The translations under genes were made by a program, and so were the position numbers. A DNA stretch of 64,000 nucleotides from a virus, in IMG/VR virus record IMGVR_UViG_3300050509_000438, positions 1 through 64,000 of that record. One strand, 5' to 3'. Positions 13,562-64,000 of this stretch are shown here, one piece after another. The notes below the pieces were generated by a model, which did no database searches, was not told the origin of the DNA, and worked only from the letters and a program-made list of their open reading frames with translations. Position 1 is the stretch's first letter. Each line of letters opens with the position of its first letter.

Positions 13562-15190
13562 TTACAGAGATTTTGTCAGAAGCCACTCATATAAGTTCGG
13601 GTTGTGGAACTCATGGCCTACCCGGTACGCTCGGTCCCAACATCCGCTATGTCCTACACCGGCGTAGATCGTAAAGATCGATTCAGGGTTATTACCGGCG
13701 TTCATGCTGTTGTCGATGGCAACCACAGCCCCTGCAGCGATCATACCGTTAACAGGCCGCGATACACCGGCAAGTGGAGCGGCGGTATCTGCATCGCCAG
13801 CAAATGCCCAAACCTTGATGTCTTTGTTGGCCGCATTGGTTCCCCAAGATGTAGAGGTGCCGCCAGAAGCGCACACCGGCGCAATTGCTGCGAATATGTT
13901 GGGATCGTTCCCGGCGTTAGCTGAAGCCAGCCATGTGCCATATCCACCCATGGAGAGCCCGGTCAGGTATATCCGATCGGGATCGATCCGGTATCCGGAA
14001 GAGTTCTTCACCCAATCGCAGAAAGCCCACGCTTCCGTCCAGAACCAGCTATTGGCCTGGGGCGACAGAACAATGAATTTCTGTCCACCGAACTGCATCT
14101 GGCTACCGTTCTTGATGTGCTTTGGTGGACCATTAGCCGGCACCTTATCCAGGTCACCAGATGTCCCAAGTCCGCGCTCGCCAGCGCCATGCAGGAAGAT
14201 GATGCAGGGGTACGTATCGACAGTCTGTGAGTAATCGTTCGGTAAAAACTGAAGAAATCCGATTGCGGCGCCGGTAGTTCCTGCAGGCTTTTTGACCTGT
14301 ACGCCATCTTCTGTTGCACCATTTGGCTGGAGAGTGACGCTGGTATGGGCCTGTAATCCACCACTGTTGGTGATGTCCTGCGGCAATGTACCAAGGGTGC
14401 CCACTATATCGTACGTACCTGGCGTGGTCTGATTGTAGCTGCCCTGTGCCCATGTTACAGCAATGGATATCACCGATGCATCATCAAGAGTACAGTTGAC
14501 AGTAGAGGGCAGAGATGCCTGCACCGTGGCGAAAGCAGTATTGTAGGCGAAGGTACGCGATGTTTGTGCAGCGATCGCGGTAATATTCCGGTCGTCGCCA
14601 GGCCCGTCAACCACGACGATGTTGATCGCTGCGGTTACAGATCCCGGGTTGGCAACATGGTCTGGTAGCGTGAGTGTACCTGTAATCGGATAGGTAGCCT
14701 CAACATCCGGGTCGTATGATCCTTCATCCCATGTAACTTCCATCGCCACTACAGAGGCATCATCAAGTGTCACATTAACTGTTGACGGCAACGCGATGTC
14801 CTCAAAAGCGGTTGTTACCGGCACGGTGATGTTTGCCTGAGCGGCAACCGAAACAACATCATGCACTTCTTCCTCAACCGTTACAAGGATTGTGGCCAGT
14901 ACTCCAGCAGTATTGGCGGTATCCGGGATAAGCTGGATCACACCTGTTATCGTGTGATCTGTTGGCGAAGCAGCATTATAGTCGTTCTGTTGCCAGAAGA
15001 CATTCAGGTTGGCCGTGCTGGCGTCATCGAAGGTTACTTCAACTGTGGATGGTAATGCCAGATTCTGATAAGGGGTGCCGAATGGAACAGATTGTGGGGT
15101 TTGGTCGGCAACAGTTTCAATTTCCTTCGGTGGTCTTACATCCGGGAATGGGAGTGTTGAGGACGATATGCCGATGTCAATTCCAAACAT
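13562..15190 (-). CDS. Ig-like (Big_4-type) x3 plus C-terminal esterase, 542 aa
   Basis: Three repeats of (A/S)LPSTV.V(T/C)(F/L)DDAS....V.W..G.Y. C-terminal motifs IIFLHGAGERG, LTGLSMGGYGTW, GDADT and GVGHSGCW, typical of the PHB-depolymerase/feruloyl-esterase-like fold. Confidence 0.6.
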   Translation of the reverse strand: MFGIDIGISSSTLPFPDVRPPKEIETVADQTPQSVPFGTPYQNLALPSTVEVTFDDASTANLNVFWQQNDYNAASPTDHTITGVIQLIPDTANTAGVLATILVTVEEEVHDVVSVAAQANITVPVTTAFEDIALPSTVNVTLDDASVVAMEVTWDEGSYDPDVEATYPITGTLTLPDHVANPGSVTAAINIVVVDGPGDDRNITAIAAQTSRTFAYNTAFATVQASLPSTVNCTLDDASVISIAVTWAQGSYNQTTPGTYDIVGTLGTLPQDITNSGGLQAHTSVTLQPNGATEDGVQVKKPAGTTGAAIGFLQFLPNDYSQTVDTYPCIIFLHGAGERGLGTSGDLDKVPANGPPKHIKNGSQMQFGGQKFIVLSPQANSWFWTEAWAFCDWVKNSSGYRIDPDRIYLTGLSMGGYGTWLASANAGNDPNIFAAIAPVCASGGTSTSWGTNAANKDIKVWAFAGDADTAAPLAGVSRPVNGMIAAGAVVAIDNSMNAGNNPESIFTIYAGVGHSGCWDRAYRVGHEFHNPNLYEWLLTKSL

Positions 15191-15195
15191 TTACA

Positions 15196-17229
15196 TTATA
15201 GTAATGGCCCGTGATATAGCGCAAATTTCTGTCCTAATTGTTCACTGCCGGTAGAAGATGGGTGTACCCCATCACCACCACGTTGAACATCTGCAGTCGT
15301 AAATTGTCCACCGTATAAGGTAGCAACTTCTTGCTGTGCTTCGACAATCTGTGGCTTATACAATGGAGCAGAGGCATATGCATAGTCGGTAAGAGCAACA
15401 CATAATTTTGCATCACTGGTATCAAACCCAGCATCCTCTACCTGATCTATCAGGTATTCCCACCATGCGATGAACTGTGACTTGTATGCTGCCTTGACAG
15501 CAGCAGCACCATTGGCATATTCCGGGTTATTGTCCCCCATATCACCAAGCCCCTGCATGAAGCACACTCCTTTGAAATTCACAGTTTTTCCCTGTGCCTC
15601 AAGGACATTAAGTCCCTGAATCAATGTTTGTACAGAAGTTCGCCCAATGCTGTTGTTGGCAACATTAAAGTTCAGGAACATAGATGCTCCTGACAGAGCC
15701 TTCTTCACCAGGAATATTTCATTATTGGCCAACGCGTTCATATCAAACCCGAACTTAAGCTCTGAAGAGAATCCATTCGGAACAGAGCCGCCGTTATTAT
15801 TAGGCCAGTCAAGGTTCTCAAAACCAACTGATGAGTTTATATATATCATGGCTCCTAATGGTCCGACCAGTGATGGAGATGGGCTGGTGGAAGTATTCCC
15901 TCCAATCATTTCGGACTGACCTGTCAACAGATAAACATTTGCTATCCCTGGAGCAGGTGGTAATTCTGAACCTGCATTATAGGTCAATCTTATCAATCCC
16001 TTACCACCATTACCACCGCGTTGATTTGTAGCACTTGTGGTTCTAGCGCCACTCCCTGCCCCTCCGTAATCATTTCCGGCCGCACCAACACCAGATGAGC
16101 CCGCTGCGCCGGAGCCTCCATTTTCAGATGTAGCCGCTCCGCCTGGCGCGGATGTAGAGCCCGATCCAGCAGGAGCATCTCCACCATTGCCAGTGCTGCC
16201 AGCACCACCACCACCAGCCGCCGAACGCGATGATGCCTGAACTGTTGATCCATTACCACCTCTGTATTTTGTAGTGCCATTGCCATCAGCTATAGCCCCA
16301 CCTAAGCCACTGGCTGTTGTAGTTCCCTTCTTCCCTCCTGCGGCTTTTACAACAGACCCATCTTCCCATGAAGTATCCTGGCCGTCAGTTCCATCAACGT
16401 TGGCGCCGCTTGGTACAGGGCACGAAACAGCAGCGGCAACATGGTATGAACTTGAGCCTGAAATCGGTCTTGTCACAGTCCCCAATGAATATCCTCCTCC
16501 TCCTCCTCCCCATCCTCGTGCTGCTGCACCACCAACTCCAGAGCCAGCACCCCCTCCAGCCCAACATTCTACCTGCATTTCATCCACGCCAGCGAGCCAG
16601 TTGTATGTTCCATCACCAGTAACCTCAAGAAGCTCAACAACGATCTGGGGTTGAACTTCAACATCGAGAGCGCCCTGTATAAAAAATGGATTGGTTATAC
16701 CACCCGTCAGAGTGATATCACCAAGAAGAGTCTGCACTCCTGCAGCATTAGGATCATAAGTGCCTTCTAGCCACGTTATAGCCAGTGATTGAACATTCCC
16801 ATTGTTGAGGGTTGCGTTAAGGTTTGATGGTTTAGTTATAGCACTAAACAATGTTCCATAAGATACAGACACTGGAGTGGCCACTTGTATCGAAGCAATG
16901 TACAAAGCAATACTATACGGATCAGAGGTTGCTGATGCGGATCCTTGAGCGTTCGTCGCCGTAACAGTAACACTGATATCAGTATCAACGTCTGTATTCG
17001 TCACAACGTAAGTGATATTGGTAGCAAGAGGAATATCCACTCCGTCTCGTTTCCATTGATAAGTAAAGCTTGTCGGGTTGTTAGCCCACGACCCGTTGCT
17101 TGCGGTTAGCGTTCCGTTAACATCAAAAACGCCTGATATTGTTGGCGCCTGAATATTCGATGGGGGTCCTGCGGAGTTAGGTTGACTTGGGAAAATGCAG
17201 ACTTGCGCGATGATTGTGTATTGCGTCAT
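15196..17229 (-). CDS. Ig-like plus glycine-rich domain plus SASA/SGNH-type O-acetylesterase, 677 aa
   Basis: Gly-rich core VECWAGGGAGSGVGGAAARGWGGGGGGY. C-terminal motifs LLTGQSEMIGG (GQSN-like), CFMQGLGD and GDGVHPS (D..H), as in the sialate O-acetylesterase family. Confidence 0.6.
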   Translation of the reverse strand: MTQYTIIAQVCIFPSQPNSAGPPSNIQAPTISGVFDVNGTLTASNGSWANNPTSFTYQWKRDGVDIPLATNITYVVTNTDVDTDISVTVTATNAQGSASATSDPYSIALYIASIQVATPVSVSYGTLFSAITKPSNLNATLNNGNVQSLAITWLEGTYDPNAAGVQTLLGDITLTGGITNPFFIQGALDVEVQPQIVVELLEVTGDGTYNWLAGVDEMQVECWAGGGAGSGVGGAAARGWGGGGGGYSLGTVTRPISGSSSYHVAAAVSCPVPSGANVDGTDGQDTSWEDGSVVKAAGGKKGTTTASGLGGAIADGNGTTKYRGGNGSTVQASSRSAAGGGGAGSTGNGGDAPAGSGSTSAPGGAATSENGGSGAAGSSGVGAAGNDYGGAGSGARTTSATNQRGGNGGKGLIRLTYNAGSELPPAPGIANVYLLTGQSEMIGGNTSTSPSPSLVGPLGAMIYINSSVGFENLDWPNNNGGSVPNGFSSELKFGFDMNALANNEIFLVKKALSGASMFLNFNVANNSIGRTSVQTLIQGLNVLEAQGKTVNFKGVCFMQGLGDMGDNNPEYANGAAAVKAAYKSQFIAWWEYLIDQVEDAGFDTSDAKLCVALTDYAYASAPLYKPQIVEAQQEVATLYGGQFTTADVQRGGDGVHPSSTGSEQLGQKFALYHGPLL

Positions 17230-17617: not shown

Positions 17618-20600
17618 TTACCTTATTGCAACATCAAACCAGCGACTACTTGTTGAATCATACTGAATGACCAATGAACCATTCGGAGCAATTGTAAGAT
17701 TCCCACCAGTGGACGAGGTGATCCTGTTTGCCGCTGATGAAGCAGCATCTTCATTGGTCACCACAACATTGTTTGCCCCAACATTCCTGATCACAATTAT
17801 CTTCCCATCAGAACCTCCGGTAAAGCCTGTTATGTTACGGCTGGCATCAGTACTTATACGAAACGAAGTTTGAGTACCAATGGCATAATCGTTCTGGTTA
17901 GACGTGATCTGAGATTTCGTAGTTTGTCTTAACGCAAATCCTCCATTTACATCCAATGTTACATTCGGAGTGGCCGTTGCAAATCCGTTAAGTCCATCAA
18001 TAGGAACGGACAGGAAAGGGTAATGAGTTAGTCCAGTAGTGTTTGTCAGAACCGGATTAATGTATACACCTCTGGCTGTGGTTGTGCCTCCTGTAAGATC
18101 TAAGGTATATCCAACAGTCATCGCATTAATAATAGCTCCTGAATTAGCACTGTTTATAAACCCTGTTCGCAACCTAAGCATGTGACTTTCTGTAGCCGCC
18201 TGTGCAGACATATTCACGTTCACGTTCACAATATCAAACTGGGCCGCTCCTGATGTGACAGTTACTCCTGGTATCTGGAAGTAATGAGTGCCTCCGCGGT
18301 ATATCAGATGCGTGCCAGTAACTCCTACTGTTCCTGTTGTGCCGGGGGCAATGTATGTAGATGAGCCAGTGCCGAATCTTGACTCCCCTCCGTTATCCAC
18401 TCTGAATATGGCCTGGTTGCTGCTATTGGCCACACGTAATCCTACATCTCCCGAACCTGCGTTGATATGCACAACCGTATTGGCTGTGATCGTATCACCA
18501 GAATTCTCAGTGAACAGTACATTGCCAACAATCTTAGGAGTTGTAACTGTGCTGGTACCTGTAACCTGCCATCCAGTACTACTGGTTAAGATGCTGCTAT
18601 CTACATGTGATGAAGTAATCTTTCCCCATGATGGTGCTGTGCTTACGCCACCAGAGATCAGCGCGTTTCCGGTAGCAACTCCAGCAAGTTTTGATAATGC
18701 TGTAGTCGTCGATGCATATAGCAAATCCCCAACAGCATATACAGTTTGTCCAGTACCTCCGTGATCAGCAGCAATTGCAGTACCTGCCCAAGTACCGGTT
18801 GCAATTGTTCCTAAGGTTGTAATAGATGTTTGACCTACATACGTTGCAGCAATATCCAGCGTAATTGATCCAGTACCATTAGTAATTGATAGCCGGTCAG
18901 TAGTTGGCGTAAGCGTTGCTTTTGTCAGGGTATTGCCAGTCGTATTACCAATGAGTAGTTGTCCATTGGTATAAGAAGTGTTACCCGTTCCTCCGTTATC
19001 TACCTCAAGAGTTCCGGTCATCGTTATTGTACCAGTAGAAGTAACAGGACCGCCAACAAATGTCAATCCTGTCGACCCACCGGATACATCTATGGAAGTT
19101 ACCCCGGAGATATTAGACCATACAGTGCCATTGCTGAATTTTACAGTATTGGTCGTAGTATCATAAACAAGCCCTCTCGCATGAGAAGAAGCCGTAGGCA
19201 ATGATACTGTTGCATATCCTGCAAGCACGAATGGAGAGTCCACATAAACCTGATCAGCGGTGAACCTTATCTTACCAGCACCAGCAGTTGTTCCGGATAT
19301 AAAAACACCCTGACTAAGATTTGTTCTCAATAGGATACCACCATCTGAACCAGAATCAGTTGCTGTTACACTGAAGAAATTCAGACGATCAGCACCCCCG
19401 CTATTCTGTCCAAATATAACTCCAAAAGATCCTGCGTTACCACCTATCTCTGTAGTACCGGTAAGCTGACCTCCCCAAATAATATCTGTTACCGGAGTAT
19501 CATCAGCTGCAGATAATCCATTGAATACGTTTATTTTTGCGCGCTGTGTGAGATCAATGCCATTGTTTTGAATTGTTTGATAGAAAGAGGATCCACCAAT
19601 ATCGGCAACAGCAATCCATCTTACAGCATTACCAGAGTCGAGTGCAAGTATCTGTGTAACCGTATTATCTTCAGTGATGTCCAGAAGAAATAGGTTGCTA
19701 AGTCCTGAGAATGTGAAACTGTATGTGCCAGTGTTGCCATCGATGACAGTATCCATGCTCAGCGCGGTGCCGCCGAGGCCGATGAATCCAGGGTTTGTTT
19801 CACTCAACCCATTTTCAGGAACAAGTCCGCCACCACCACTGGTGCCAAGAGAACCAAAGCCAGTCCATGTGGTCGCATCCTGCTTGACAAATGTGGCTGC
19901 GGTGTTCTGGATGGAGATCGTATCGGACACTGAAACAAGAGTAAGTCCTGTGTCAGCGGCAAAGACAAGATTACCGGTTCCCTGCTTGATGAAGATCACT
20001 CCGAACCCAACATCTTCATCGGTAAGTGTAATGTCAACCTGCGCGGCACTGGTGCAATACACTACTTTGTTTCGATAGGTTGAGTCGATCGTAAGTGTCG
20101 TGCCAGCTTCAATCACTATCTCATACGCCGGGAACAGTTCACCGGAAGACAAACTCAATCCATACAGAGCCTGAATTTCTTCAACAGGTCCCGCGGATGC
20201 TGTTGTGCGCGCCAGGATCCGGTTGGTGTTCATCGTCATCGAACTGATGCCGATGGTCCCAAATCCAATGCTTGTTCCTGATCGGCGCAGAATATCTCCA
20301 TCGCTTGCCGCGGTGATCGCAGCAGTTACACCAGATGAGTTTGCTGAACGACCAACCACAGACAACCCAGCAATATCCTGAAACTTAGCATACGTAACCG
20401 CAGCATTTGCGATGGTAGTGGCTACTGTGCCGGTACCTGTCCCGGTCACATCCCCGGTAAGTGTTACCGAGCTTACACCGCCAGATGCCGACAGGGTATG
20501 GGTAGCATGATCATACGACAGATTGGTGCCGATCGTGATAAAAGCGATCGCGTTATCCGTGTCGTCCCATCCCCATAGCCGGTTCGCGCCAGGGTCGCTG

Positions 20601-22501
20601 AGACTGGATCCGGTACCACCATCCGCAAGAGCCACATCTGTTCCTCCAACCCGGTAAATGTATGCCGTACCGATGGTGGTTGAGGTATGGATGTCGAAGG
20701 AAACTGTATTATTGGCGGTCAGTGTTGCCCACGTAACGTAGGCCGTACCGTCCACATCGTAGGCTTGCAGCAACAACGTGTTACCTGCGCTGGTTGATGT
20801 GCGCAACGCGGCACCTGTAGGATAAGTGGTGTTGTTGGAATCATCAAGGATCACTCCTGAATTCTGGATGGAGTCACCAGCGGCAAGGTTCCATCGAACA
20901 ATGGCGTTGTCAGTTGAAGATACCGGGCCGCTCACATTGCCGGGTGAAGGAGGCGTCTGCCATGTCGGGTGTCCAGCGACAACGGTGAGCACCGATCCAT
21001 CTGAACCAGGGCCAACTTGCTGGGCTGTATCGCCGGGTCCACCGATGAAGATCGCGTGATACGTTAAACTGGCGGTAAGCTTACCATTAAGCTGGTCCTG
21101 GATATTCGCATTTGCGTTATCAAGGAAGTTGATCACAGTGGAATCAACAGTAAGTCCGGAAAGCAGGTTGATCTCTGTGGAGGTAGTCGATACATCCGTG
21201 ACATCGGCCAGCACCAGCGTATGCCATTCAGTATTGTAATTGGTACCGTCGATCTTGCGGAGTACCTGATTGGTGCTGCCCCCGACAGGTAATCCATTGG
21301 CTGCGGATGAACCCCACGATACAGATGTGCCATTTGTTGTGATCACCTGGCCCGCGGTACCAACTCCAAGATTGATCCAGTCCGTTCCATTATAAGTAAG
21401 CAGATCACCCTGTGCTACGCCGGTAAGGTTTACAACCAACCTCTCATCAAGAGATGCTTGAATGGAAGATGATACATCCAAGAAACCAAGAGTAGTTGTC
21501 GTGACGCCGCTCGCAACTGGTATACCGTTCGCATCAGAAACAAGAACTCGGTTCGCAATGATCGATGTCGCATCTGTCATGACGCCAAGCGATGAATTAA
21601 TCACAAGGCGATTTGCATTACCGGAAGCGATCTTACTTCTGGCTATCGCAGCAGCAGAATTAATATCAGCATTAACAATGGAATCATTGGTGATCGAGAA
21701 CACACCGGCATTATCGAAAGTGACAACACCGGATGGAGTAACTGCAGTTGCTACATCTGCCAGATTGCCAACAAAGAACTTTCCGTTCTGAAGAGAATTC
21801 GAAAGCCTGTTGTTAAGCTGTATCTGTATGTTGGAGCTAATACCAGCGAGTTGATTGATGTCAACCGCAGCAACACCCGTCACGCCATCCATAATATTCA
21901 GTTCTGCAGCACTCGCCGTCAGATCTGTGATCTTACTTACAGTCAGCGTTGACCACTGTACATTGTATGAAGTGTTATCGATCTTGCTCAGGTATTGACC
22001 TGTGGTACCACCGGACGGGATCCCATTCCCTACGACAGAGCTCCACACAAGACCAGCCGGTGTAGATGTAAGCACCTCGCCTGGATTCCCCATCTCGAGC
22101 GGCAAATAGATGATACCGTTGGATTGCAGTAATGCACCCAATCCGCCCACCGGATAATTACCGGATATAGCCTGATTGAATTCAGTGGTTGTTAACGGGG
22201 TAGGAAGTGTTGACAGGGCATTGAGTCCAGAGGCGTCCCGAATCTGAAGAAGCAACGAATTGGCTACTGATGTATCAATGTTAACAGCTATTATTGCATC
22301 CCCATCATCGTTTAAAACAAGGGCATTGCTGAGTTCGTAGAACAGCGATGCACAATGGATAAGCTGATTTTCAAGAGCAGGCTGCTTAGGGCTGTTGCTA
22401 TTGGCTGCCTCTACCGCTTCAAAACCTATCTCACCGATCCTGGCATAGGCATCGGAATAAATCGTGAAGGCATTTGGTATGAGTTGATACAGGTTTCCCA
22501 T
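17618..22501 (-). CDS. Giant tail fibre, 1627 aa
   Basis: A 4.9-kb ORF rich in G/T/S/N. Internal ~100-aa duplication (P.GG..GQ.L.KID...YN..W.TL). Recurrent GGTG(S/N/Q) fibre-type motifs. Confidence 0.7.
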   Translation of the reverse strand: MGNLYQLIPNAFTIYSDAYARIGEIGFEAVEAANSNSPKQPALENQLIHCASLFYELSNALVLNDDGDAIIAVNIDTSVANSLLLQIRDASGLNALSTLPTPLTTTEFNQAISGNYPVGGLGALLQSNGIIYLPLEMGNPGEVLTSTPAGLVWSSVVGNGIPSGGTTGQYLSKIDNTSYNVQWSTLTVSKITDLTASAAELNIMDGVTGVAAVDINQLAGISSNIQIQLNNRLSNSLQNGKFFVGNLADVATAVTPSGVVTFDNAGVFSITNDSIVNADINSAAAIARSKIASGNANRLVINSSLGVMTDATSIIANRVLVSDANGIPVASGVTTTTLGFLDVSSSIQASLDERLVVNLTGVAQGDLLTYNGTDWINLGVGTAGQVITTNGTSVSWGSSAANGLPVGGSTNQVLRKIDGTNYNTEWHTLVLADVTDVSTTSTEINLLSGLTVDSTVINFLDNANANIQDQLNGKLTASLTYHAIFIGGPGDTAQQVGPGSDGSVLTVVAGHPTWQTPPSPGNVSGPVSSTDNAIVRWNLAAGDSIQNSGVILDDSNNTTYPTGAALRTSTSAGNTLLLQAYDVDGTAYVTWATLTANNTVSFDIHTSTTIGTAYIYRVGGTDVALADGGTGSSLSDPGANRLWGWDDTDNAIAFITIGTNLSYDHATHTLSASGGVSSVTLTGDVTGTGTGTVATTIANAAVTYAKFQDIAGLSVVGRSANSSGVTAAITAASDGDILRRSGTSIGFGTIGISSMTMNTNRILARTTASAGPVEEIQALYGLSLSSGELFPAYEIVIEAGTTLTIDSTYRNKVVYCTSAAQVDITLTDEDVGFGVIFIKQGTGNLVFAADTGLTLVSVSDTISIQNTAATFVKQDATTWTGFGSLGTSGGGGLVPENGLSETNPGFIGLGGTALSMDTVIDGNTGTYSFTFSGLSNLFLLDITEDNTVTQILALDSGNAVRWIAVADIGGSSFYQTIQNNGIDLTQRAKINVFNGLSAADDTPVTDIIWGGQLTGTTEIGGNAGSFGVIFGQNSGGADRLNFFSVTATDSGSDGGILLRTNLSQGVFISGTTAGAGKIRFTADQVYVDSPFVLAGYATVSLPTASSHARGLVYDTTTNTVKFSNGTVWSNISGVTSIDVSGGSTGLTFVGGPVTSTGTITMTGTLEVDNGGTGNTSYTNGQLLIGNTTGNTLTKATLTPTTDRLSITNGTGSITLDIAATYVGQTSITTLGTIATGTWAGTAIAADHGGTGQTVYAVGDLLYASTTTALSKLAGVATGNALISGGVSTAPSWGKITSSHVDSSILTSSTGWQVTGTSTVTTPKIVGNVLFTENSGDTITANTVVHINAGSGDVGLRVANSSNQAIFRVDNGGESRFGTGSSTYIAPGTTGTVGVTGTHLIYRGGTHYFQIPGVTVTSGAAQFDIVNVNVNMSAQAATESHMLRLRTGFINSANSGAIINAMTVGYTLDLTGGTTTARGVYINPVLTNTTGLTHYPFLSVPIDGLNGFATATPNVTLDVNGGFALRQTTKSQITSNQNDYAIGTQTSFRISTDASRNITGFTGGSDGKIIVIRNVGANNVVVTNEDAASSAANRITSSTGGNLTIAPNGSLVIQYDSTSSRWFDVAIR

Positions 22502-33285: not shown

Positions 33286-34104
33286 TCATCCCGCAATTAC
33301 CTTACAAAGCACATCCTCCTTCAAAACCGCAAAATACTCCACTCCCTCCACCTTCACCGGCCAGTTCGCCCCGTAGTTGTAGATGATCTTGTCGCCTACC
33401 TGCAGGTCGCAGAATGGGCTGAAGTGGCGCATGAACGCCTCGAGCGGCTTGTTCTCCGGCTGGGACTTCTTCACTATCCATTCCTCCTTGGGCCGCATGC
33501 GAATAGAGCCATCCGGGTTGGTCAGCGGCTTGCCGTTCACCACTACCGGCGTGGGGATGCTGATGTCCTCCCATGTCTCCACGTTGGGCTCCACAAGGCA
33601 CCAGTCGCCCTGCATGATGATCTCACCATCACGTACCGAGCAGATGATCTCGTTGCAGCCTGCCTTGTACAGCGTGCGCCCGCGGTGCTTGCCGAGCTCG
33701 TTGTCGGGCTCGGTTACCCACTCTCCGAAGTAAACCTTGTCGCCACGCTGAATGTCACACTTGGCGGCGATGTCCGCGATCGTGATGGTCTTGAAGCCTT
33801 CCCATGTTGAGCAGGAATAGTACTCTGCGCTTCTATTGTACCCGGCACGAATCTTGGCTTCAATATGGTCGCCGCCAACATAGGCGCGCGGCGCCGGCAC
33901 CCCGGGATCCACAAGTTCAAGAACCTGGCGCGTGAAATTGATCGGACAGGTTTCCACGAAGCCGTAGATGCGTTTGCGGGCAAAGCGCTCGATCTCTTCG
34001 TCGTTCTGATGGGCGGTGTTCAGGGTCACAATCCCGCTGTTCGTGGTCTTGGACTCGTACTTTTGGTCTACGGAGACGATGAAAAAGTCGTTAATGATTT
34101 GCAT
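33286..34104 (-). CDS. Tandem GroES-like (Cpn10-fold) protein, 272 aa
   Basis: DFFIVSVDQKYESKTTNSGIVTLNTA and VGDKIIYNYGANWPVKVEGVEYFAVLKEDVLCKV resemble the GroES N- and C-terminal signatures. Codon usage matches the phage. Overlapping plus-strand ORFs are GC-driven shadows. Confidence 0.4.
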   Translation of the reverse strand: MQIINDFFIVSVDQKYESKTTNSGIVTLNTAHQNDEEIERFARKRIYGFVETCPINFTRQVLELVDPGVPAPRAYVGGDHIEAKIRAGYNRSAEYYSCSTWEGFKTITIADIAAKCDIQRGDKVYFGEWVTEPDNELGKHRGRTLYKAGCNEIICSVRDGEIIMQGDWCLVEPNVETWEDISIPTPVVVNGKPLTNPDGSIRMRPKEEWIVKKSQPENKPLEAFMRHFSPFCDLQVGDKIIYNYGANWPVKVEGVEYFAVLKEDVLCKVIAG

Positions 34105-36332: not shown

Positions 36333-36550
36333 ATCAGTTCATTGATTCGTTTGTAACATGTGCTGCGCGATATATTAAGTATTTCAGCAACCTCCTCCCA
36401 TCTCTTTGTTTTAAGCAGTTCGCGTTGCTGCTCTTTTTGCTCTTCTGTGAATACAGGACGTTGTATTATTACCATCCCATTCTTCTTGCGCTGATAGTAT
36501 GTTCGTTTTAATTCTTCGCTGGTCAGCTTGTAGTATTTTTTTCGCCCCAT
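36329..36550 (-). CDS. Small HTH DNA-binding protein, 73 aa
   Basis: C-terminal WEEVAEILNISRSTCYKRINELI helix-turn-helix pattern. Confidence 0.45.
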   Translation of the reverse strand: MGRKKYYKLTSEELKRTYYQRKKNGMVIIQRPVFTEEQKEQQRELLKTKRWEEVAEILNISRSTCYKRINELI

Positions 36551-36993
36551 AGCGCAGAAAATTGAAAATAAAAATCATCCCATGTTTTGATCAGGAAGTA
36601 CTTGCCGCCGGAAGCTTCGATCTCTGCCTGAAACTTCTTCTGATCCTCGCGCTGCCGATCCTTACCAACCTTGACTTCCCAGGAAGTGAACTGCCCCTGA
36701 ATTACCGCGGCGATATCCCCAATCCCCTTACTCTCCTTGCTGCGTGGTATGAAGCGGCCCTTCTTGACCGTAATACGATGGCCTACCACATTATGAACAT
36801 GCTCTGGCTGGATGTACCTGCCTTCACTGGCCTGGCGCCATGCTTTGACTCCGCGGTACTTGAAGAACGCCAGCACGGCCTTGGTGAGATCGTTCGCTGT
36901 CTTGTCGCTGAAGGTCTTCTTGGGGCGACAGTGCTCAGGAATGTTCGCGTATTCCTGTTTGGAAATTATGGTGGCCAGGTCGCGGAGGGTCAT
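36523..36993 (-). CDS. VRR-NUC-type nuclease, about 156 aa (ATG start preferred over the upstream TTG)
   Basis: GIGDIAAVIQGQFTSWEVKVGKDRQREDQKKFQAEIEASGG fits the G.PD...EVK...Q pattern of the VRR-NUC/PD-(D/E)xK family. Confidence 0.5.
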   Translation of the reverse strand: MTLRDLATIISKQEYANIPEHCRPKKTFSDKTANDLTKAVLAFFKYRGVKAWRQASEGRYIQPEHVHNVVGHRITVKKGRFIPRSKESKGIGDIAAVIQGQFTSWEVKVGKDRQREDQKKFQAEIEASGGKYFLIKTWDDFYFQFSALWGEKNTTS

Positions 36994-36995
36994 AA

Positions 36996-37322
36996 TTAGT
37001 TGCCTTCCTTTTGATTTGACTGAACAAGAGTCAAAGTATTTGGATTCCAAAATTGATTTGCAGTATCTGCCAGATACGCCAACTGGTATCCATCTAAGGT
37101 GTCATTGTAGGCTCTCCAGCTTTGCGCGTGGTCATCCATATAAATTCCTCCGATCTCTAAAAGTTCATCGCATTTAATGATGCACTGAATTGCCAGAAGA
37201 GGTTCTTTAAGACGAGCTTCGCCACTCATGTGCCCTTCCTCAACATCCGGATCAGTGATAGTAGCTAATACTTTCTTGTGGGTGATGATTCTGATGTGTA
37301 GTGATACGATTTCTATTTTCAT
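36996..37322 (-). CDS. Hypothetical protein, about 108 aa
   Basis: Internal ATG forms an ATGA overlap with the stop of the phosphatase gene. Confidence 0.45.
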   Translation of the reverse strand: MKIEIVSLHIRIITHKKVLATITDPDVEEGHMSGEARLKEPLLAIQCIIKCDELLEIGGIYMDDHAQSWRAYNDTLDGYQLAYLADTANQFWNPNTLTLVQSNQKEGN

Positions 37323-37699
37323 AAATAAGAATTTTCTATAAACCATTCCTCTAATGCCATCCAATCCACATACGGCTTCTTGCCATCTTCCCGGATCAAA
37401 GGTACGCCAGCATTCTTATCGTCGATATTGCAATGACAGTAGACCTTCCGTGATCCTGTTTCATACTCTGGATTGCACATGACATATTTGAACTCTATCG
37501 AATTATTTCGAGCCCACTCCTGTACGTCATCCAGCAAATGACCTGTGCGCATGGTCATCAGGATGAACTCATGACCGGCGTTTCTGAGCTTATGAAGAAC
37601 CTCCACGGCATGCGGTACAGTTGGCCCCACGTAAGGATTCCAGTTCTCTACAAGCGTGCCGTCAAAATCAAGTTCTATGAGTTTACGCGTTGTCACCAC
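37319..37699 (-). CDS. HAD-superfamily phosphatase, GmhB-like, 126 aa
   Basis: DxDxT motif ELDFDGTLV. A Cys/His cluster MCNPEYETGSRKVYCHC resembles the GmhB zinc site (CPH...CxC). Coupled to the heptose kinase gene. Confidence 0.55.
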   Translation of the reverse strand: MVTTRKLIELDFDGTLVENWNPYVGPTVPHAVEVLHKLRNAGHEFILMTMRTGHLLDDVQEWARNNSIEFKYVMCNPEYETGSRKVYCHCNIDDKNAGVPLIREDGKKPYVDWMALEEWFIENSYL

Positions 37700-38600
37700 T
37701 CACCTCCTCCCATCTCTTGATCAGTTCTTCCTTCGTTATTGCATGGACACCAGCATAACGACATACCTCTGAAGCCGCAATGTTGGCAAGACTAACTCCG
37801 TCCTGAATGTCCTCATTCAAAGCAGTCATCATACCCACTACTCCCGTTACGGTGTCACCGGCACCACAGACATCCACGATATTAATTTTGTGTCCATTGG
37901 TCCGTCCAGCCATACCTTCGTTGTTGGTGTACATGATCCCAGACTCACCTTGCGTTACGATGAACCATCGACTATATAACTCCGGCCATTGTGGCATCGC
38001 ATCAAACTCCTTTTGGTTACACTTGATTACAGTAGATCCCTTGAATCTAGCGTAGTCCCTCTTCGCGTCCACCACCACTGGGATCTTATAATGTAGCGAA
38101 AGTTCCATGATCGCGTTGATCAACGAGTCAGAGAGACACCCCTTATGGTAATCAGCAAGCACAATGCAGTCGTACTTACCCATCGTGGCTTCTAGTTCCT
38201 TCCACCAGGAATACGCGGTGAACGGCAGCCACTCGATCTGCATGGGATCGATCTCGTCGTCGATGCGCAGCAGGTGATGACTTCCGGACATGATGCGCAT
38301 CTTCTTGGAATGCTTGCCTTCATGGGTTTTGATGTTGTCGTTGTACTCCATAGGCCAGCAGTAGCCGCCGTTGCTATGGATGCAGAACAAGTCTGTCGGC
38401 ACGCCCATGCCCACAAGATTCATAAACACATTGCCAGCTCCACCGGGTCTGCTGAAGGCGATCTGTTGATTGACCACTGGCACAGGTGCCTCCGGGCTGA
38501 TGCGGTCGACGGAGCCGAGAATGTAAGCGTCTTCGATGAAATCACCGATGACTGCTATCTTGAGTTCGGCGGCACGAGTGAGGAGGGCGTGGAGGTTCAT
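37683..38600 (-). CDS. hldA: PfkB-family sugar kinase resembling the HldE N-terminal domain (heptose-7-phosphate 1-kinase), 305 aa
   Basis: VIGDFIEDAYILGSVDRISPEAPVPVV, RPGGAGNV and DVCGAGDT match the RfaE domain I signatures as recalled. Confidence 0.8.
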   Translation of the reverse strand: MNLHALLTRAAELKIAVIGDFIEDAYILGSVDRISPEAPVPVVNQQIAFSRPGGAGNVFMNLVGMGVPTDLFCIHSNGGYCWPMEYNDNIKTHEGKHSKKMRIMSGSHHLLRIDDEIDPMQIEWLPFTAYSWWKELEATMGKYDCIVLADYHKGCLSDSLINAIMELSLHYKIPVVVDAKRDYARFKGSTVIKCNQKEFDAMPQWPELYSRWFIVTQGESGIMYTNNEGMAGRTNGHKINIVDVCGAGDTVTGVVGMMTALNEDIQDGVSLANIAASEVCRYAGVHAITKEELIKRWEEVSGDNA

Positions 38601-38815
38601 GCTAAAAAGTTATATCGTTTTAATCCGTTATCTTGAGATATTTCAACTGGCATTTCTACAGGAGCAGGCTGTTGATGTTCATCTATAAACTCATCGAGTT
38701 CCATTGCCTCTCGTGAGAATTCCGGTAAAATTAAATCCGAAGTTATATGCTGGAGAGTCAATTCCCCAAAACAATTGGTGAACTCCTGTTGTGCGTCAAG
38801 TACGGAGTTCATCAA
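38597..38815 (-). CDS. Hypothetical acidic protein, 72 aa
   Basis: Coupled ORF inside the nucleotide-sugar operon. Confidence 0.4.
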   Translation of the reverse strand: MMNSVLDAQQEFTNCFGELTLQHITSDLILPEFSREAMELDEFIDEHQQPAPVEMPVEISQDNGLKRYNFLA

Positions 38816-39033
38816 TCGTTATTGCTTTTTGTGTACCCCGGCGGATTCGGTGCGTCACAGGAGCGCTTCATCTGCCATTCAGCAAGTGCTTTATTGTATT
38901 CCCTCATTGATTCTTCATAAGAATATGGACCGACATAGTCATCCCGATTAGGCTCCTGCGGCTTAATGCTCTCCATATACTCATTCCACTCCTTGAGCTT
39001 CTGTTCGTAGGCGGCTTGTTCTTCTATATTCAT
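38812..39033 (-). CDS. Hypothetical protein, 73 aa
   Basis: Coupled ORF inside the nucleotide-sugar operon. Confidence 0.4.
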   Translation of the reverse strand: MNIEEQAAYEQKLKEWNEYMESIKPQEPNRDDYVGPYSYEESMREYNKALAEWQMKRSCDAPNPPGYTKSNND

Positions 39034-39149
39034 TTTACAATTCTCTTCTTTGGATCCATAACAAACGCGATGAAGTATTTAATCCACTCAGGATGGTTAA
39101 GATCGAGATCAAGTCGTCCTTCTTTTGTTGCACGCACCCATGGAGGCAT
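39030..39149 (-). CDS. Small ORF, 39 aa (MPPWVRATKEGRLDLDLNHPEWIKYFIAFVMDPKKRIVK), below the ORF-track cutoff
   Basis: Fills the only gap in the operon. ATGA overlap with the next gene. The start lies 4 nt after the upstream stop. Confidence 0.3.
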   Translation of the reverse strand: MPPWVRATKEGRLDLDLNHPEWIKYFIAFVMDPKKRIVK

Positions 39150-39153
39150 TCGT

Positions 39154-39606
39154 TTAATCTTCATACGCTTTCAATACCATTTTAATAATGTCCGAACTGC
39201 TGATCTTATCACCAAGCCCATTGGCTGTAGGCTTGTAGAACACCATTGTCGCATGGTGCTGACCGATGACCGGTTTGCCGAGCCATTCGGCACCTTTGAC
39301 GAGGTAGTCGGGCGTTGCCTTCGCGATCTCATACAATAGTTCTTCATCACTGTCTATACCGATAACTTCGTCGATCATACTGCGGTTACCACACTGCATT
39401 GCCATCAGGTTGATTTTCCGGATCGCGTACGGGATGATCGGCAGTCGTGAGTTACCTTCTTTAATACGTTCGTCTTCATCGAGCATCACTATCACTTTGC
39501 CTTCGGGTCCTGCGAGAAGGCGGCATTGATTTAATGCGTTAAAATGCCCCACATGGAGCAGGTCTAATTTACCGGTGGTGATCACTTTAGGCATAAGCTG
39601 TGGCAC
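39154..39606 (-). CDS. hldC: Cytidylyltransferase-fold nucleotidyltransferase resembling the HldE C-terminal domain (heptose-1-phosphate adenylyltransferase), 150 aa
   Basis: HxGH motif GKLDLLHVGHFNAL. DYLVKG and the C-terminal ISSSDIIKMV parallel RfaE domain II. Confidence 0.75.
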   Translation of the reverse strand: MPQLMPKVITTGKLDLLHVGHFNALNQCRLLAGPEGKVIVMLDEDERIKEGNSRLPIIPYAIRKINLMAMQCGNRSMIDEVIGIDSDEELLYEIAKATPDYLVKGAEWLGKPVIGQHHATMVFYKPTANGLGDKISSSDIIKMVLKAYED

Positions 39607-47034: not shown

Positions 47035-48069
47035 ATGTGGATCATACCTTCAAACCACCCTCTTTACTCTCAGTTTGCACAGGTCGTCGTGGAATCGAAA
47101 TCGGAATTGAGAGAGCAATTAGATCATTTCGGCGCTTATTCGGTGATAAAGAATGGGAAACCAGAGACGTTATCCAACCTGCCGTTTATGTGGAAATCGA
47201 ATCCGTTATCGCCTACAATCTGGTTGCGCAAATGGAGCAAGGTGTATTGGCTCCCACTCCTGTTTGGACGGACCTTAAAACATTCCCATGGGGGCTATTT
47301 CGGAATAAAATATGCATCCTCACTGGAGGATATCCATGCCAGCCCTTCAGTACAGCCGGAAAGCAGTTCGGAGTTAATGATCCGCGACACCTCTACCCAT
47401 ATCTCGAATACGGAGTCGATGCAGTTAAACCTGTTTGCTGCTTCTTCGAAAACGTCAGCAACCACATCAATATCGGATACAGAGAGGTCAGACATTCTTT
47501 GGAAACGCTTGGTTACACGGTTGAAGAGGGAATATTCTCGGCGGAAGAAGTTGGCGCGCCACACTTACGCAAACGCCTATTCATCCTCGCCGTGGCCGAC
47601 TCCTACTGCACAGAACAGAGTAAGAGACGAGGAGACTTTGCAAAAATGCTTGGCCTTCAGGAAGGCCAACGCGAATCAGAACACGGTTCCTCTTTATCTG
47701 GAAGAAAAAGTGAGATTATGGAAGACTCCAATATCAAGCGAGTTGGAAGGAGGCAAAATGAAGATATTGATCGGAAAGGACGGTCGTTACAAACTAAGAG
47801 ATCAAGTGATGGAGTTGGCCTGGCCAACTCCATCAGCCAGAGATTGGCGCAGCGGAAAAAGCAATCAGCACGAGAAGAATTCCAGACCATTGAACGAAGT
47901 TGCTTTCCATCAGGACAAGGGCAATACCAGCAAGGATGGGAACATCCTCGTCTTGAATCCCGCATGGGTTTTACAGTTAATGGGTACGACTTTACAGAAG
48001 ACCTTCTTCGCCTGGCGGGAAATGCCGTCGTTGAGCAGCAATCTGAACTCGCCTTTAGAACACTCTTAA
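47035..48069 (+). other. Second fully open same-strand frame across the methyltransferase locus (344 codons); its middle (47593-47985) carries WPTP/LNP..LMG motifs
   Basis: PWPTPTAQNRVRDEE, RLWKTPISSELEGGK, LAWPTPSARDWRSGKSN and LNPAWVLQLMG. No stop codon anywhere, while the third frame stops after 24 codons. Confidence 0.6.
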
Positions 48070-48083
48070 ATAAATTTATATGA
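47037..48083 (+). CDS. DNA (cytosine-5)-methyltransferase; catalytic motifs are in this frame but the TRD-like middle lies in the overlapping frame
   Basis: SVCTGRRGIEIG (motif I-like), GGYPCQPFS (IV), FFENV (VI), APHLRKRLF (VIII), LAGNAVV (X). GTG start. Confidence 0.8.
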   Translation: MDHTFKPPSLLSVCTGRRGIEIGIERAIRSFRRLFGDKEWETRDVIQPAVYVEIESVIAYNLVAQMEQGVLAPTPVWTDLKTFPWGLFRNKICILTGGYPCQPFSTAGKQFGVNDPRHLYPYLEYGVDAVKPVCCFFENVSNHINIGYREVRHSLETLGYTVEEGIFSAEEVGAPHLRKRLFILAVADSYCTEQSKRRGDFAKMLGLQEGQRESEHGSSLSGRKSEIMEDSNIKRVGRRQNEDIDRKGRSLQTKRSSDGVGLANSISQRLAQRKKQSAREEFQTIERSCFPSGQGQYQQGWEHPRLESRMGFTVNGYDFTEDLLRLAGNAVVEQQSELAFRTLLNKFI

Positions 48084-48551: not shown

Positions 48552-49235
48552 ATGAACAAAGAGCACCCAATTTTATACAGCACACCGATGATCCGCGCAA
48601 AGCTGGAAGGTCGGAAGACGCAGACGCGGAGAATATGTAAGCCGCAGCCTGAATTAAAACCAGAGGAATATCGAGGTAGTGAGTTTGGGGATTACTGGTG
48701 GCCATCGAACAAAGCTAGATTGATGTTGGACATCAAACAGATGCAAATGGTTTGTCCCTACGGAACAGTCGGCGATGTTCTATGGTCGCGAGAGACGGCA
48801 TGTATAGAAGTAGACCCCGAAAGTGGTAATCATTACCCTGTTTATAAAGCTGACTGTCCCAACTATCCATTAGGATCGAATCGATGGACACCATCAATTC
48901 ATGTCCCTAAAATTTATTCCCGCATCTGGGAGCGTATCACAGACATTCGTGTTGAGAGGTTGCAGGACATCAGCGAAGAGGATGCGATCGCTGAAGGAAT
49001 TATCCGTATATCAACAATCATTGATACTGAGTGGTACGCCAACTACGGAAACGAAGATATAGGAACATCACTTCATCCAATCGAGTCTTACCGCACGCTT
49101 TGGGAGTCGATCAACGGTGAAGGCTCATGGATTGTCAATCCCTGGGTATGGGCGATCACCACTGAAGTACTGTCAACCACCGGCAGACCGAAAGAGTTGA
49201 GCGACGAACTGATTCTAAACATACCTGAGAGATGA
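48552..49235 (+). CDS. Conserved phage protein with an N-terminal ..MIRAKLEGRKTQTRR.. motif (ASCH/PUA-like fold suspected), 227 aa
   Basis: LYSTPMIRAKLEGRKTQTRR and GDVLWSRE are recalled from phage proteins often found near methyltransferases. Confidence 0.4.
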   Translation: MNKEHPILYSTPMIRAKLEGRKTQTRRICKPQPELKPEEYRGSEFGDYWWPSNKARLMLDIKQMQMVCPYGTVGDVLWSRETACIEVDPESGNHYPVYKADCPNYPLGSNRWTPSIHVPKIYSRIWERITDIRVERLQDISEEDAIAEGIIRISTIIDTEWYANYGNEDIGTSLHPIESYRTLWESINGEGSWIVNPWVWAITTEVLSTTGRPKELSDELILNIPER

Positions 49236-58608: not shown

Positions 58609-59093
58609 TCACTTTTAACGAGGTTTGCCATAACGGTGCCTGTGTTGAAGGTGTGAAGGAATTTTACATTGACAATTTTTATGGCCAAACCGCCGTATCG
58701 CTGGCTGATGCCATCGATGCTGGAGCTGACCTAAAATATTTAGGAGGCTACGGCTACGGCGACGGCTACGGCTACGGCGACGGCTACGGCGACGGCTACG
58801 GCTACGGCAACGGCGACGGCTACGGCAACGGCTACGGCGACGGCGACGGCTACGGCAACGGCAACGGCGACGGCTACGGCGACGGCAACGGCAACGGCTA
58901 CGGCGACGGCGACGGCTACGGCAACGGCAACGGCGACGGCTACGGCGACGGCGACGGCGACGGCAACGGCGACGGCGACGGCTACGGCAACGGCAACGGC
59001 GACGGCTACGGCGACGGCGACGGCGACGGCAACGGCGACGGCTACGGCAACGGCTACGGCGACGGCAACGGCGGTTGGCCCAAACCATCATGA
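58593..59093 (+). CDS. Protein with a 50-aa N-terminal domain followed by 54 Gly-(Tyr/Asp/Asn) dipeptides, 166 aa
   Basis: MDNRLITFNEVCHNGACVEGVKEFY...LKYLGG followed by (G[YDN])54 and GGWPKPS. ATGA-coupled to the recombinase gene. Confidence 0.6.
   Translation: MDNRLITFNEVCHNGACVEGVKEFYIDNFYGQTAVSLADAIDAGADLKYLGGYGYGDGYGYGDGYGDGYGYGNGDGYGNGYGDGDGYGNGNGDGYGDGNGNGYGDGDGYGNGNGDGYGDGDGDGNGDGDGYGNGNGDGYGDGDGDGNGDGYGNGYGDGNGGWPKPS
58746..59072. repeat. Perfect hexanucleotide array (GGC-NAC)54 with N = T/G/A only, including an exact 66-bp tandem duplication
   Basis: Read directly. Units 58908-58973 and 58974-59039 are identical. Gly is always GGC, and CAC never occurs. Confidence 0.95.
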
Positions 59094-59638
59094 CCCTAGG
59101 CTACGCCCGCGTGAGCCGCGAAGACCAGGACCTCACCCGCCAGATCGACGCCCTGCAAAAGGCTGGCTGTGATAAGCTCTACCTCGATAAGATGTCGGGC
59201 GTCAAAAACTCCCGGCCTGAGCTTGACAAGCTGCTGATCGACGTGCAGCCAGGCGATACTGTGGTGGTCCATAAGCTCGACCGCCTGGGCAGATCTACTA
59301 TCCACCTGCTGAGCACCGTCACGGGCTGGCGCGATCGCGGGATACACTTCAGATCGCTCAGCGAGAGCCTGGACACCTCTTCGCCCCATGGCCGGATGAT
59401 CTTTACGGTGATGGCAGCCTTTGCTGAGCTCGAGCGCGACATGATCTCGGAACGCACCAGGCATGCGCTCAGTGTGAAGAAGAGCAATGGACAGCGTATG
59501 GGGAGGCCGGAGGCTGACAGGACGCAAACTAAATCTGAGATTGCGGCTATGGTTGAGCGTGGTATGTCAGATGCCGAGATCATATCAGAGCTCAGGATGG
59601 GGAGAAGTACTTATTATAGGTTGAAGGCTAAGCTATGA
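59090..59638 (+). CDS. Small serine recombinase (resolvase/invertase family), 182 aa
   Basis: LGYARVSREDQDLTRQ, VHKLDRLGRS and SERTRHAL, with a C-terminal HTH MSDAEIISELRMGRSTYYRLK. Confidence 0.85.
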   Translation: MTLGYARVSREDQDLTRQIDALQKAGCDKLYLDKMSGVKNSRPELDKLLIDVQPGDTVVVHKLDRLGRSTIHLLSTVTGWRDRGIHFRSLSESLDTSSPHGRMIFTVMAAFAELERDMISERTRHALSVKKSNGQRMGRPEADRTQTKSEIAAMVERGMSDAEIISELRMGRSTYYRLKAKL

Positions 59639-63864: not shown

Positions 63865-64000
63865 CCGCCAGCAACATCGAGCACGAAGGAGAGTGCCAAG
63901 AGTGCCTCCGACATGAGAAAGACGGGCAACTGCTTTGTGATAAGATTGCCAAGCTAGAGCATGAGAACAGGGAACTGCGGGATGCACTGAAGAGTTTCGT
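63861..64000 (+). CDS. 5' part of a CDS truncated by the right window edge (MTASNIEHEGECQECLRHEKDGQLLCDKIAKLEHENRELRDALKSF...)
   Basis: ATGA overlap with the upstream stop. Open to nt 64000. Not in the ORF track because no stop lies in the window. Confidence 0.45.
   Translation, partial: MTASNIEHEGECQECLRHEKDGQLLCDKIAKLEHENRELRDALKSF

Follow-up and report, generated by a model that had tools for sequence, protein, structure and literature searches.

What might a phage do with an activated heptose? The question is raised by a 64,000-nucleotide stretch of viral DNA (positions 1 to 64,000 of IMG/VR record IMGVR_UViG_3300050509_000438; hereafter the window), in which seven densely packed open reading frames (ORFs) run on the minus strand from position 39606 to 36996. 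Three of them encode a nucleotidyltransferase, a PfkB kinase and a small HAD phosphatase that resemble the middle steps of bacterial ADP-heptose synthesis. A first-pass annotation, made from the letters of the window, had described this module and reported that no isomerase or transferase accompanied it. We now consider it fairly likely, though by no means certain, that the operon forms the central part of a complete ADP-heptose pathway, encoded by the phage, which supplies phage-encoded glycosylation. The product would most likely be a methylated heptose glycan on a cytoplasmic acceptor, most probably the virion proteins.

The window represents 64,000 nucleotides of a roughly 78.3-kb genome; operon positions are counted within the window. 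The missing 14 kb were recovered from two contigs: L087, which is 99.8% identical to the window across their overlap, and L088, a 78,362-bp JGI contig that shows 100% identity with the window across 20.9 kb and from which the public gene calls were taken. Proteins were compared with Pfam, TIGRFAM/NCBI models (TIGR and NF accessions), phrogs and the PDB, and AF2 models were searched with Foldseek. The operon had no megablast match among 50,697 phage records. When IMG/VR was scanned with a single protein, no relative emerged, and an alignment-based scan recovered relatives at no more than 34% identity; therefore, this phage clade is unrepresented in IMG/VR.

The kinase (305 amino acids; 37683-38600, minus strand) carries the motifs VDRISPEAPVPVV, PGGAGNV and DVCGAGDT. 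It matched TIGR02198 (rfaE_dom_I, the HldE kinase domain) over nearly its full length with an E value of 1.6e-55, the next PfkB subfamily being ribokinase at 1.7e-7, and it matched PF00294 at 6.3e-13. By sequence, its best relative in the PDB is Burkholderia HldA (4e84, 1.6e-24). An AF2 model built from 40 homologues (pLDDT 93.3) gave the same answer, with HldA at 2e-27 in Foldseek and no other PfkB kinase better than about 5e-17. The signature R33/S35/P36/E37/P39/V40, the GAGD motif and PGGAGN are invariant across the 40 homologues. About 100 homologues share 37-74% identity with the kinase, many of them on contigs of 77-82 kb, and are followed by a gap to the cellular Bacteroidota kinases at 34-36%. 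Because its score lies under the curated equivalog cut-off for TIGR02198, we place the protein, on sequence and model comparisons, as a divergent phage member of the HldA/HldE clade.

The nucleotidyltransferase lies at the 5' end of the operon (39154-39606, minus strand) and is 150 residues long when read from a GTG codon, or 146 residues from the ATG at 39594 used in the public gene call. It has the HxGH motif within KLDLLHVGHF and a C-terminal motif of the ISxxD/STT type, KISSSDIIKMV. Matches were obtained to PF01467, the cytidylyltransferase fold (1.2e-5), to phrog_7878 (1.4e-17), to TIGR02199, or rfaE_dom_II (8.7e-11), and to the TagD model (7.5e-8); the best PDB match is TagD itself (1coz, 1.5e-4). 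We therefore assign this protein mostly from its context: the gene adjoins that of the kinase, in the same operon, in each of four related phage contigs (L004, L005, L169 and L170), and the two are fused in the manner of HldE in 11 of about 80 IMG/VR loci. Its putative activity is that of a heptose-1-phosphate adenylyltransferase. The first-pass annotation had proposed a split HldE-type kinase and nucleotidyltransferase accompanied by a phosphatase, and had named ribokinase- and NMN-adenylyltransferase-type families as the competing identities. The best profiles are instead rfaE_dom_I and rfaE_dom_II and the best structure is HldA, so the split assignment stands, as do the single tight operon and every motif that had been quoted.

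The phosphatase required a different assignment. This small capless HAD protein (126 amino acids; 37319-37699, minus strand) carries LDFDGTLV and MCNPEYETGSRKVYCHC, and its intact DxDxT and IDD motifs align with those of BT0820. It matched the BT0820 family model NF046079 (3.3e-19), phrog_1238 (9e-23) and PDB entry 2obb (4.3e-15), and produced no match to GmhB or HisB-N (histidinol-phosphatase) models at E ≤ 0.01. For all three operon enzymes the family matches greatly exceed what chance would give. The protein had been described as GmhB-like partly for its C..CHC cluster. That cluster reads S..CHC in L169 and N..ANY in L170 and is absent from BT0820, and we rejected a GmhB-like zinc-binding site because the cysteines are not conserved in the L169 and L170 homologues. 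The gene itself is kept beside the kinase in L169 (83% identity) and L170 (51%). We suggest that the enzyme acts as a heptose-1,7-bisphosphate 7-phosphatase, a functional analogue but not a homologue of GmhB. That the pathway includes a phosphatase step at all is argued by the cyanomyovirus Prochlorococcus phage P-SSM2, in which a different HAD protein occupies the same position. A literature search on BT0820 returned nothing useful. The phrog_1238 label "phosphoheptose isomerase" is a misnomer that is widespread among phage records (for example crAss001, Klebsiella phage Menlow and Ralstonia phage RSF1), and in crAss-like phages the BT0820/phrog_1238 HAD is found beside a polynucleotide kinase or fused with one.

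The isomerase is encoded just beyond the window. A GmhA gene starts 336 nt past position 64000 (L087 11760-12359) and specifies a 199-residue protein that matched NF001628 (2.5e-67), TIGR00441 (9.3e-49) and PF13580 (SIS_2; 2.4e-23). It is 50-55% identical to annotated GmhA proteins of Rufibacter, Pontibacter and Fibrella, and the exact protein is present on five contigs, all of 50-200 kb, one of them 78.3 kb long. GmhA, HldD, glycosyltransferase and DNA-modification genes were sought in the window by Pfam scans of ORFs of at least 140 residues, and there the earlier report of no GmhA, HldD or glycosyltransferase was borne out. It does not extend to the phage, since the window edge cuts off the remainder of the genome and that remainder encodes both GmhA and a GT9-type transferase. 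No HldD-type epimerase was found among those window ORFs or on the contigs covering the rest of the genome, and the expected product is therefore ADP-D,D-heptose.

A search of the remaining genome for a heptosyltransferase, as had been recommended, recovered a 468-residue fusion protein encoded on the minus strand about 4.6 kb past the window end. Its N-terminal part is a DUF5672 domain (PF18922, 4.7e-19) that matched GT-A enzymes by structure. The C-terminal part is a weak GT9 match by sequence (PF01075, 4e-4, its 20.2 bits falling below the gathering score of 22; Aah/TibC model TIGR04414, 0.0019), and precomputed annotation places both PF18922 and PF01075 on many homologues of the fusion. 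Its AF2 model (pLDDT 93.7) retrieved TibC first in Foldseek (3e-11), followed by the GT9 enzymes 3tov, WaaC and WaaF at about 4e-8. Two motifs expected of GT9 enzymes with their GT-B fold, the catalytic GD pair (G211-D212) and the nucleotide-sugar motif G381-x-D383-S384-G385, are invariant across 43 homologues, as is a cluster formed by C423, C430, H432, C442 and C451 at the position where TibC has its inserted four-cysteine iron finger. The conserved sugar-binding residues of TibC are Thr226, Lys230, Arg286, Pro300/Ser294 and Trp305; in a profile alignment, Thr226 is retained, Lys230 corresponds to His-Arg, Pro300 to the invariant Asp383 and Trp305 to Gln. The N-terminal beta-barrel of TibC is missing and DUF5672 stands in its place. 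A literature search on DUF5672 yielded nothing useful.

The fusion is surrounded by genes for an S-adenosylmethionine-dependent methyltransferase, a 205-residue protein, a 270-residue family, a 266-residue family and a GroES-like protein. Of solved structures, the closest to the 270-residue family is GmaR, a flagellin glycosyltransferase (2.9e-4), with the peptide glycosyltransferases SunS and ThuS next at non-significant values. The 266-residue family has a GT9-like FIGNQS motif and an iterative search tied its homologues to the GT9 domain; profile-profile comparison with the fusion matched only the FIGxxS motif, with a probability of 32%. Its designation as a second GT9 enzyme is accordingly tentative. 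No transmembrane segments were found in any protein of this glycosylation cluster.

Synthesis and transfer genes recur jointly in a family of phages of about 80 kb. Homologues of the transferase fusion (46-80% identity) lie on contigs sized like those that carry kinase homologues, and 17 contig sizes between 67 and 82 kb are common to the two match lists. For GmhA, five contig sizes coincide with those of the kinase and nine with those of the transferase. These counts are a proxy for co-occurrence, taken from equal-sized contigs in separate lists. Direct linkage was seen in two distant phages (L109 and L117), in which a kinase and a nucleotidyltransferase are no more than about 5 kb from the transferase block. 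That block, consisting of the 266-residue protein, the DUF5672-GT9 fusion, the methyltransferase and the 270-residue protein, stands directly upstream of terminase- and portal-like genes in eight distant phages. The similarity of GmhA to cellular proteins, together with one metagenome-assembled genome label, suggests that the hosts are probably Cytophagales (Bacteroidota).

What these sequences and models show is the family of each enzyme, its intact motifs, and the linkage and co-occurrence of the genes; from this we infer on which substrate each step acts, which nucleotide is used and what the acceptor is. GmhA would convert sedoheptulose-7-phosphate to heptose-7-phosphate, and the HldA-like kinase would phosphorylate C1 to give heptose-1,7-bisphosphate. 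The BT0820-family HAD would then take off the 7-phosphate, and the HldC-like nucleotidyltransferase would turn the resulting heptose-1-phosphate into ADP-D,D-heptose. One or more GT9 domains, including that of the 468-residue fusion, would consume this donor, and a methylated heptose-containing glycan would be placed on a cytoplasmic acceptor such as a Ser/Thr-rich fibre.

The acceptor is the weakest step of this proposal. We favor protein, and probably virion proteins, for several reasons. TibC, the best structural relative of the transferase, is a protein O-heptosyltransferase that is stereoselective for un-epimerised ADP-D,D-heptose (PMC4358343). Glycosyltransferases of proteins and peptides are also what the 270-residue GT-A protein beside it resembles, the transferase block travels with packaging and structural genes, and all cluster components are soluble. 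Finally, the genome encodes a fibre-like protein of 1627 residues (17618-22501, minus strand) that is 24% Ser+Thr and 12% Gly with recurrent GGTG-type motifs, and that we regard as a candidate acceptor. It has no Pfam match and no internal repeats by BLAST, and self-comparison of the ten largest structural proteins disclosed no TibA/AIDA-like acceptor repeats. In its most specific form the proposal is more tentative, and we give it somewhat less than even credence: these Bacteroidota phages of about 80 kb would make their own ADP-D,D-heptose and use the TibC-like GT9/GT-A fusion, with further transferases and methyltransferases, to O-heptosylate their own virion proteins, for instance the Ser/Thr-rich fibre.

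Several observations weigh against a heptose pathway directed at virion proteins. The heptose activity of every step is a prediction from homology and models. Three of the enzymes score below the curated NCBI equivalog cut-offs (kinase, 188.5 bits against 345 for TIGR02198; nucleotidyltransferase, 41.8 against 181.5 for TIGR02199; GmhA, 226 against 265 for NF001628), and their substrate specificity may therefore be altered. For the nucleotidyltransferase, HldE domain II is just marginally nearer than TagD. The BT0820-family phosphatase has no known substrate and is a neighbour of polynucleotide kinase in crAss-like phages, and in L004 and L005 no copy of its gene lies within 10 kb of the kinase. 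Nor is the transferase a true member of the TibC family, for it lacks the beta-barrel, has Asp for Pro-300 and matches at a sequence E value of only 0.0045. The joint recurrence of the genes is read from matching contig sizes rather than whole genomes. The operon also sits among recombination genes (RecT and an exonuclease, with an SNF2 helicase in relatives), a setting that fits a DNA target as well, and the integrase of L170 leaves room for lysogenic conversion of the host surface.

The last of these points leads to the host envelope as a destination. GT9 is the classical lipopolysaccharide heptosyltransferase family, with WaaC and WaaF among the strong structural matches, and the phage enzymes could heptosylate the lipopolysaccharide core or another surface glycan of the host, for example to block superinfection or as lysogenic conversion. 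JGI names the transferase homologues "ADP-heptose:LPS heptosyltransferase", L170 has its tyrosine integrase, and gp309-311 of P-SSM2 carry heptose-pathway product names in GenBank amid sugar-modifying enzymes; these cyanophage genes have long been discussed as lipopolysaccharide genes. TibC nevertheless outranks WaaC and WaaF in the fold search, and a putative TibC-like metal-finger cluster is conserved in the phage proteins, whereas WaaC and WaaF are without one (PMC4358343). Moreover, the fusion partner of the GT9 domain is a GT-A domain of a kind typical for glycosylation genes of giant viruses, the block accompanies terminase and portal genes in distant phages, and no integrase was found in this genome, which has just a small serine resolvase (59075-59638). 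With these features in hand, we think envelope remodelling unlikely.

DNA would be the acceptor if ADP-heptose or another nucleoside diphosphate-heptose were transferred to a modified phage base to evade restriction. There is precedent in the metagenomic phage cluster known as contig 53, in which a bifunctional HAD/APH enzyme, a cytidylyltransferase and a GT-B transferase yield mono- and di-heptosyl-5-hydroxymethylcytosine (bioRxiv 10.1101/2023.12.21.572611), and in the arabinosyl-5-hydroxycytosine pathway of RB69, DLP3 and HY126, which runs from sugar phosphate through bisphosphate and 1-phosphate to the nucleotide sugar with a HAD phosphatase (PMC13326640). Recombination and nuclease genes flank the operon, and the genome encodes a C5 cytosine methyltransferase (47037-48083, plus strand; PF00145, 3.4e-21). 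What argues against this route is that neither a TET/5mYOX dioxygenase, nor a thymidylate-synthase homologue, nor a dCMP hydroxymethylase was detected in the scanned window ORFs or among the precomputed Pfam matches that covered the remaining genome; both had been searched for a TET or thymidylate-synthase partner. The DNA transferases described in those two reports are GT-B enzymes like T4 beta-glucosyltransferase or BshA/MshA, or GT-A enzymes, and neither report has a GT9 enzyme. A 227-residue protein encoded near the methyltransferase (48552-49235, plus strand) matches only phrog_874 (2.3e-62), a family of unknown function; two small ORFs separate the two genes. A DNA target thus seems improbable to us. 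We are equally doubtful that the module handles a pentose or hexose phosphate instead of a heptose, or drains or rewires host pools or signalling without a dedicated transferase. The sub-threshold scores and the uncharacterised phosphatase family would suit such a role, as would the at least 587 IMG/VR viral contigs with HldE-like kinases in varied contexts, where a common order is nucleotidyltransferase, kinase, cupin-like protein and SDR epimerase, the last two in place of GmhA and GT9. Here, however, the genome also encodes a clear GmhA and GT9-type transferases, which turn up with the kinase across the family; the N-terminal signature specific to HldE is invariant, and the kinase model matches HldA ten orders of magnitude better than any other PfkB kinase.

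Set against known systems, the proposed ADP-heptose pathway is close to that of bacteria, in which GmhA, HldE or HldA plus HldC, GmhB and HldD act. The order of the chemistry is the same, the isomerase, kinase and nucleotidyltransferase families match, and the bacterial split into HldA and HldC is the arrangement of the phage. Burkholderia 4e84 and 5x9q were both among the PDB matches; the latter is labelled "putative cytidylyltransferase", and we take it to be HldC. The phage differs in having a BT0820-family phosphatase rather than GmhB, in lacking a detectable HldD, in distributing its phage-borne genes over three loci and in its scores below the equivalog cut-offs.

Among viruses, P-SSM2 gp309-311 follow the same order as the window, the nucleotidyltransferase first, then the kinase and then the small HAD. 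These genes overlap as well, and their annotations read nucleotidyltransferase, carbohydrate kinase and "phosphoheptose isomerase". Identity with the window proteins is 34% for the nucleotidyltransferase (gp309) and 28% for the kinase. The same misnomer thus attaches to both HADs, through GenBank in P-SSM2 and through phrog_1238 in the window, yet the two proteins are barely alignable (E of 0.008, N-terminus only). The surroundings also differ, with a carbamoyltransferase, a cupin and an SDR epimerase in P-SSM2 and recombination genes in the window, and no GmhA or GT9 lies within 6 kb on either side of the P-SSM2 module. The contig 53 and RB69-type clusters likewise encode their own kinase, HAD phosphatase and nucleotidyltransferase and proceed through a bisphosphate, and contig 53 has been shown to yield a heptose product. 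Their kinases are of the APH type, however, their nucleotidyltransferases are of the MurU or cytidylyltransferase type, their DNA glycosyltransferases have other folds, and they are always found with an enzyme that generates 5-hydroxymethylcytosine or 5-hydroxycytosine, which was not found here in the ORFs and Pfam matches covered.

For the transferase, TibC/AAH is the nearest comparison. It is the best structural match of the phage GT9 domain, the Cys/His cluster of the phage protein lies where TibC inserts its iron finger, and the preference of TibC for ADP-D,D-heptose fits a genome in which no HldD was found. They part company in the replacement of the beta-barrel by a DUF5672 GT-A-like domain, in the Asp for Pro-300, in the unconserved Trp-305, in the marginal sequence score and in the lack of an autotransporter substrate in the phage. 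Asp also stands at the Pro-300 position in WaaC. Mycobacteriophages, chloroviruses and mimiviruses glycosylate their virions with virus-encoded transferases. Here, as in those viruses, the transferases are encoded by the virus and methyltransferases stand alongside, and DUF5672 domains are present in many giant-virus transferase-type proteins. No virus is known to heptosylate its own proteins or to carry a whole ADP-heptose pathway for that purpose.

The remaining ORFs of the operon are small. Public gene calls give the seven lengths as 146, 44, 73, 71, 305, 126 and 108 residues, and adjacent genes either abut or overlap by 4-17 nt: 11 nt between the nucleotidyltransferase and the 44-residue ORF, 17 nt between kinase and HAD, and 4 nt at three junctions. 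Between the nucleotidyltransferase and the kinase lie ORFs of 44 residues (39030-39164), 73 residues (38812-39033) and 72 residues (38597-38815; 71 in the public call), all on the minus strand. They had been read as interleaved with the pathway parts, the first as a 39-residue ORF that proves to be the 44-residue ORF begun at an internal Met. None has a family match; the 44-residue ORF has no homologue in L004, L005, L169 or L170, and the other two are unconserved in relatives. The same slot holds a 67-residue ORF in L004, is empty in L005 and L170, and holds a 314-residue gene in L169. Because family matches and conservation are lacking and unrelated genes fill the slot in relatives, the three ORFs probably belong to a variable accessory-gene slot outside the heptose pathway. 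The L169 gene (3076-4020) encodes a Gad2-like protein (PF26128, a Gabija anti-defence family) beside a kinase that is 67% identical to ours, and the slot may collect anti-defence genes. At the other end of the operon, 3' of the HAD gene, a 108-residue ORF (36996-37322, minus strand) has no family match and is 35% identical to its L169 equivalent.

Downstream of the kinase, the relatives encode an SNF2/DEAD-like helicase of 417-443 residues (L004 10926-12257, L005 11076-12362, L169 6327-7589 and L170 7450-8703; directly after the kinase in L004 and L005) and a small VRR-NUC-like nuclease. The window has no helicase there; a 156-residue nuclease-like protein (36523-36993) matches the small nuclease of the relatives at its C-terminus. 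The tyrosine integrase of L170 (709-2139) adjoins RecT in a contig whose kinase is 48% identical to that of the window, and at least some members of the family are therefore likely to be temperate.

Other features of the genome concern its structural genes and host interactions. A 1322-residue protein (6188-10156, minus strand) contains the crAss-virus muzzle C-terminal domain (PF25729, 9.3e-9), which suggests a crAss-like podovirus tail in a phage of about 78 kb from an environmental metagenome. Two fibre-like proteins (13562-17229, minus strand) have Big_4 Ig-like domains, one of them with a sialate-O-acetylesterase-type SASA domain and a glycine-rich domain in addition, and an adjoining 277-residue protein gave weak alpha/beta-hydrolase matches; by sequence, this region probably encodes receptor-modifying esterases that act on acetylated polysaccharide. 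Positions 1-3664 (minus strand) are the 3' part of a 1653-residue tail gene that runs off the window edge (L088 11899-16860), and the small plus-strand ORFs listed at the left end are probably spurious because this gene covers the region. Lying 3' of it is a 135-residue PAS-domain protein (PF13426; L088 18554-18961), which is unusual for a phage. Two GroES/Cpn10-like sequences are present: the C-terminal part (Cpn10, 8.3e-7) of a 272-residue protein (33286-34104, minus strand) that is kept in L004, L169 and L170, and a 118-residue protein within the glycosylation cluster (L087 17633-17989, minus strand). Between the structural genes and that cluster, close past the window end, a 112-residue protein with an Acb2/Tad1 hairpin domain (PF24729; L087 20567-20729, L088 20371-20709) suggests a sponge for CBASS/Thoeris signals.

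Part of this picture was already known: split HldA/HldC-type phage genes have been annotated for years, as in P-SSM2, and a phage cluster for heptosyl-5-hydroxymethylcytosine has been reconstituted (bioRxiv 10.1101/2023.12.21.572611). What is new is the combination of a complete heptose system from GmhA to transferase, a phosphatase that is not GmhB, a DUF5672-GT9 fusion with TibC-like features, and conservation of these across a phage family. The module alone would not surprise a specialist. Phage nucleotide-sugar genes are usually labelled "LPS genes" and left untested; here the whole route from sedoheptulose-7-phosphate to the transferase is phage-encoded, which makes the fate of the phage-made heptose experimentally tractable. 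Within that route, a functional analogue of GmhB would have been recruited from the uncharacterised HAD family BT0820/phrog_1238. Should the acceptor be DNA or the host envelope, the system would represent a new way of evading restriction or excluding superinfection. Were the virion the acceptor, the O-heptosylation of proteins that is known in bacteria from autotransporter adhesins would extend to viruses and add a new type of virion glycan, with a bearing on receptor binding, stability and immune recognition. O-heptosylation of virion proteins would then be the first virus-encoded protein heptosylation and would give the first virion glycan made by a fully virus-encoded heptose pathway.

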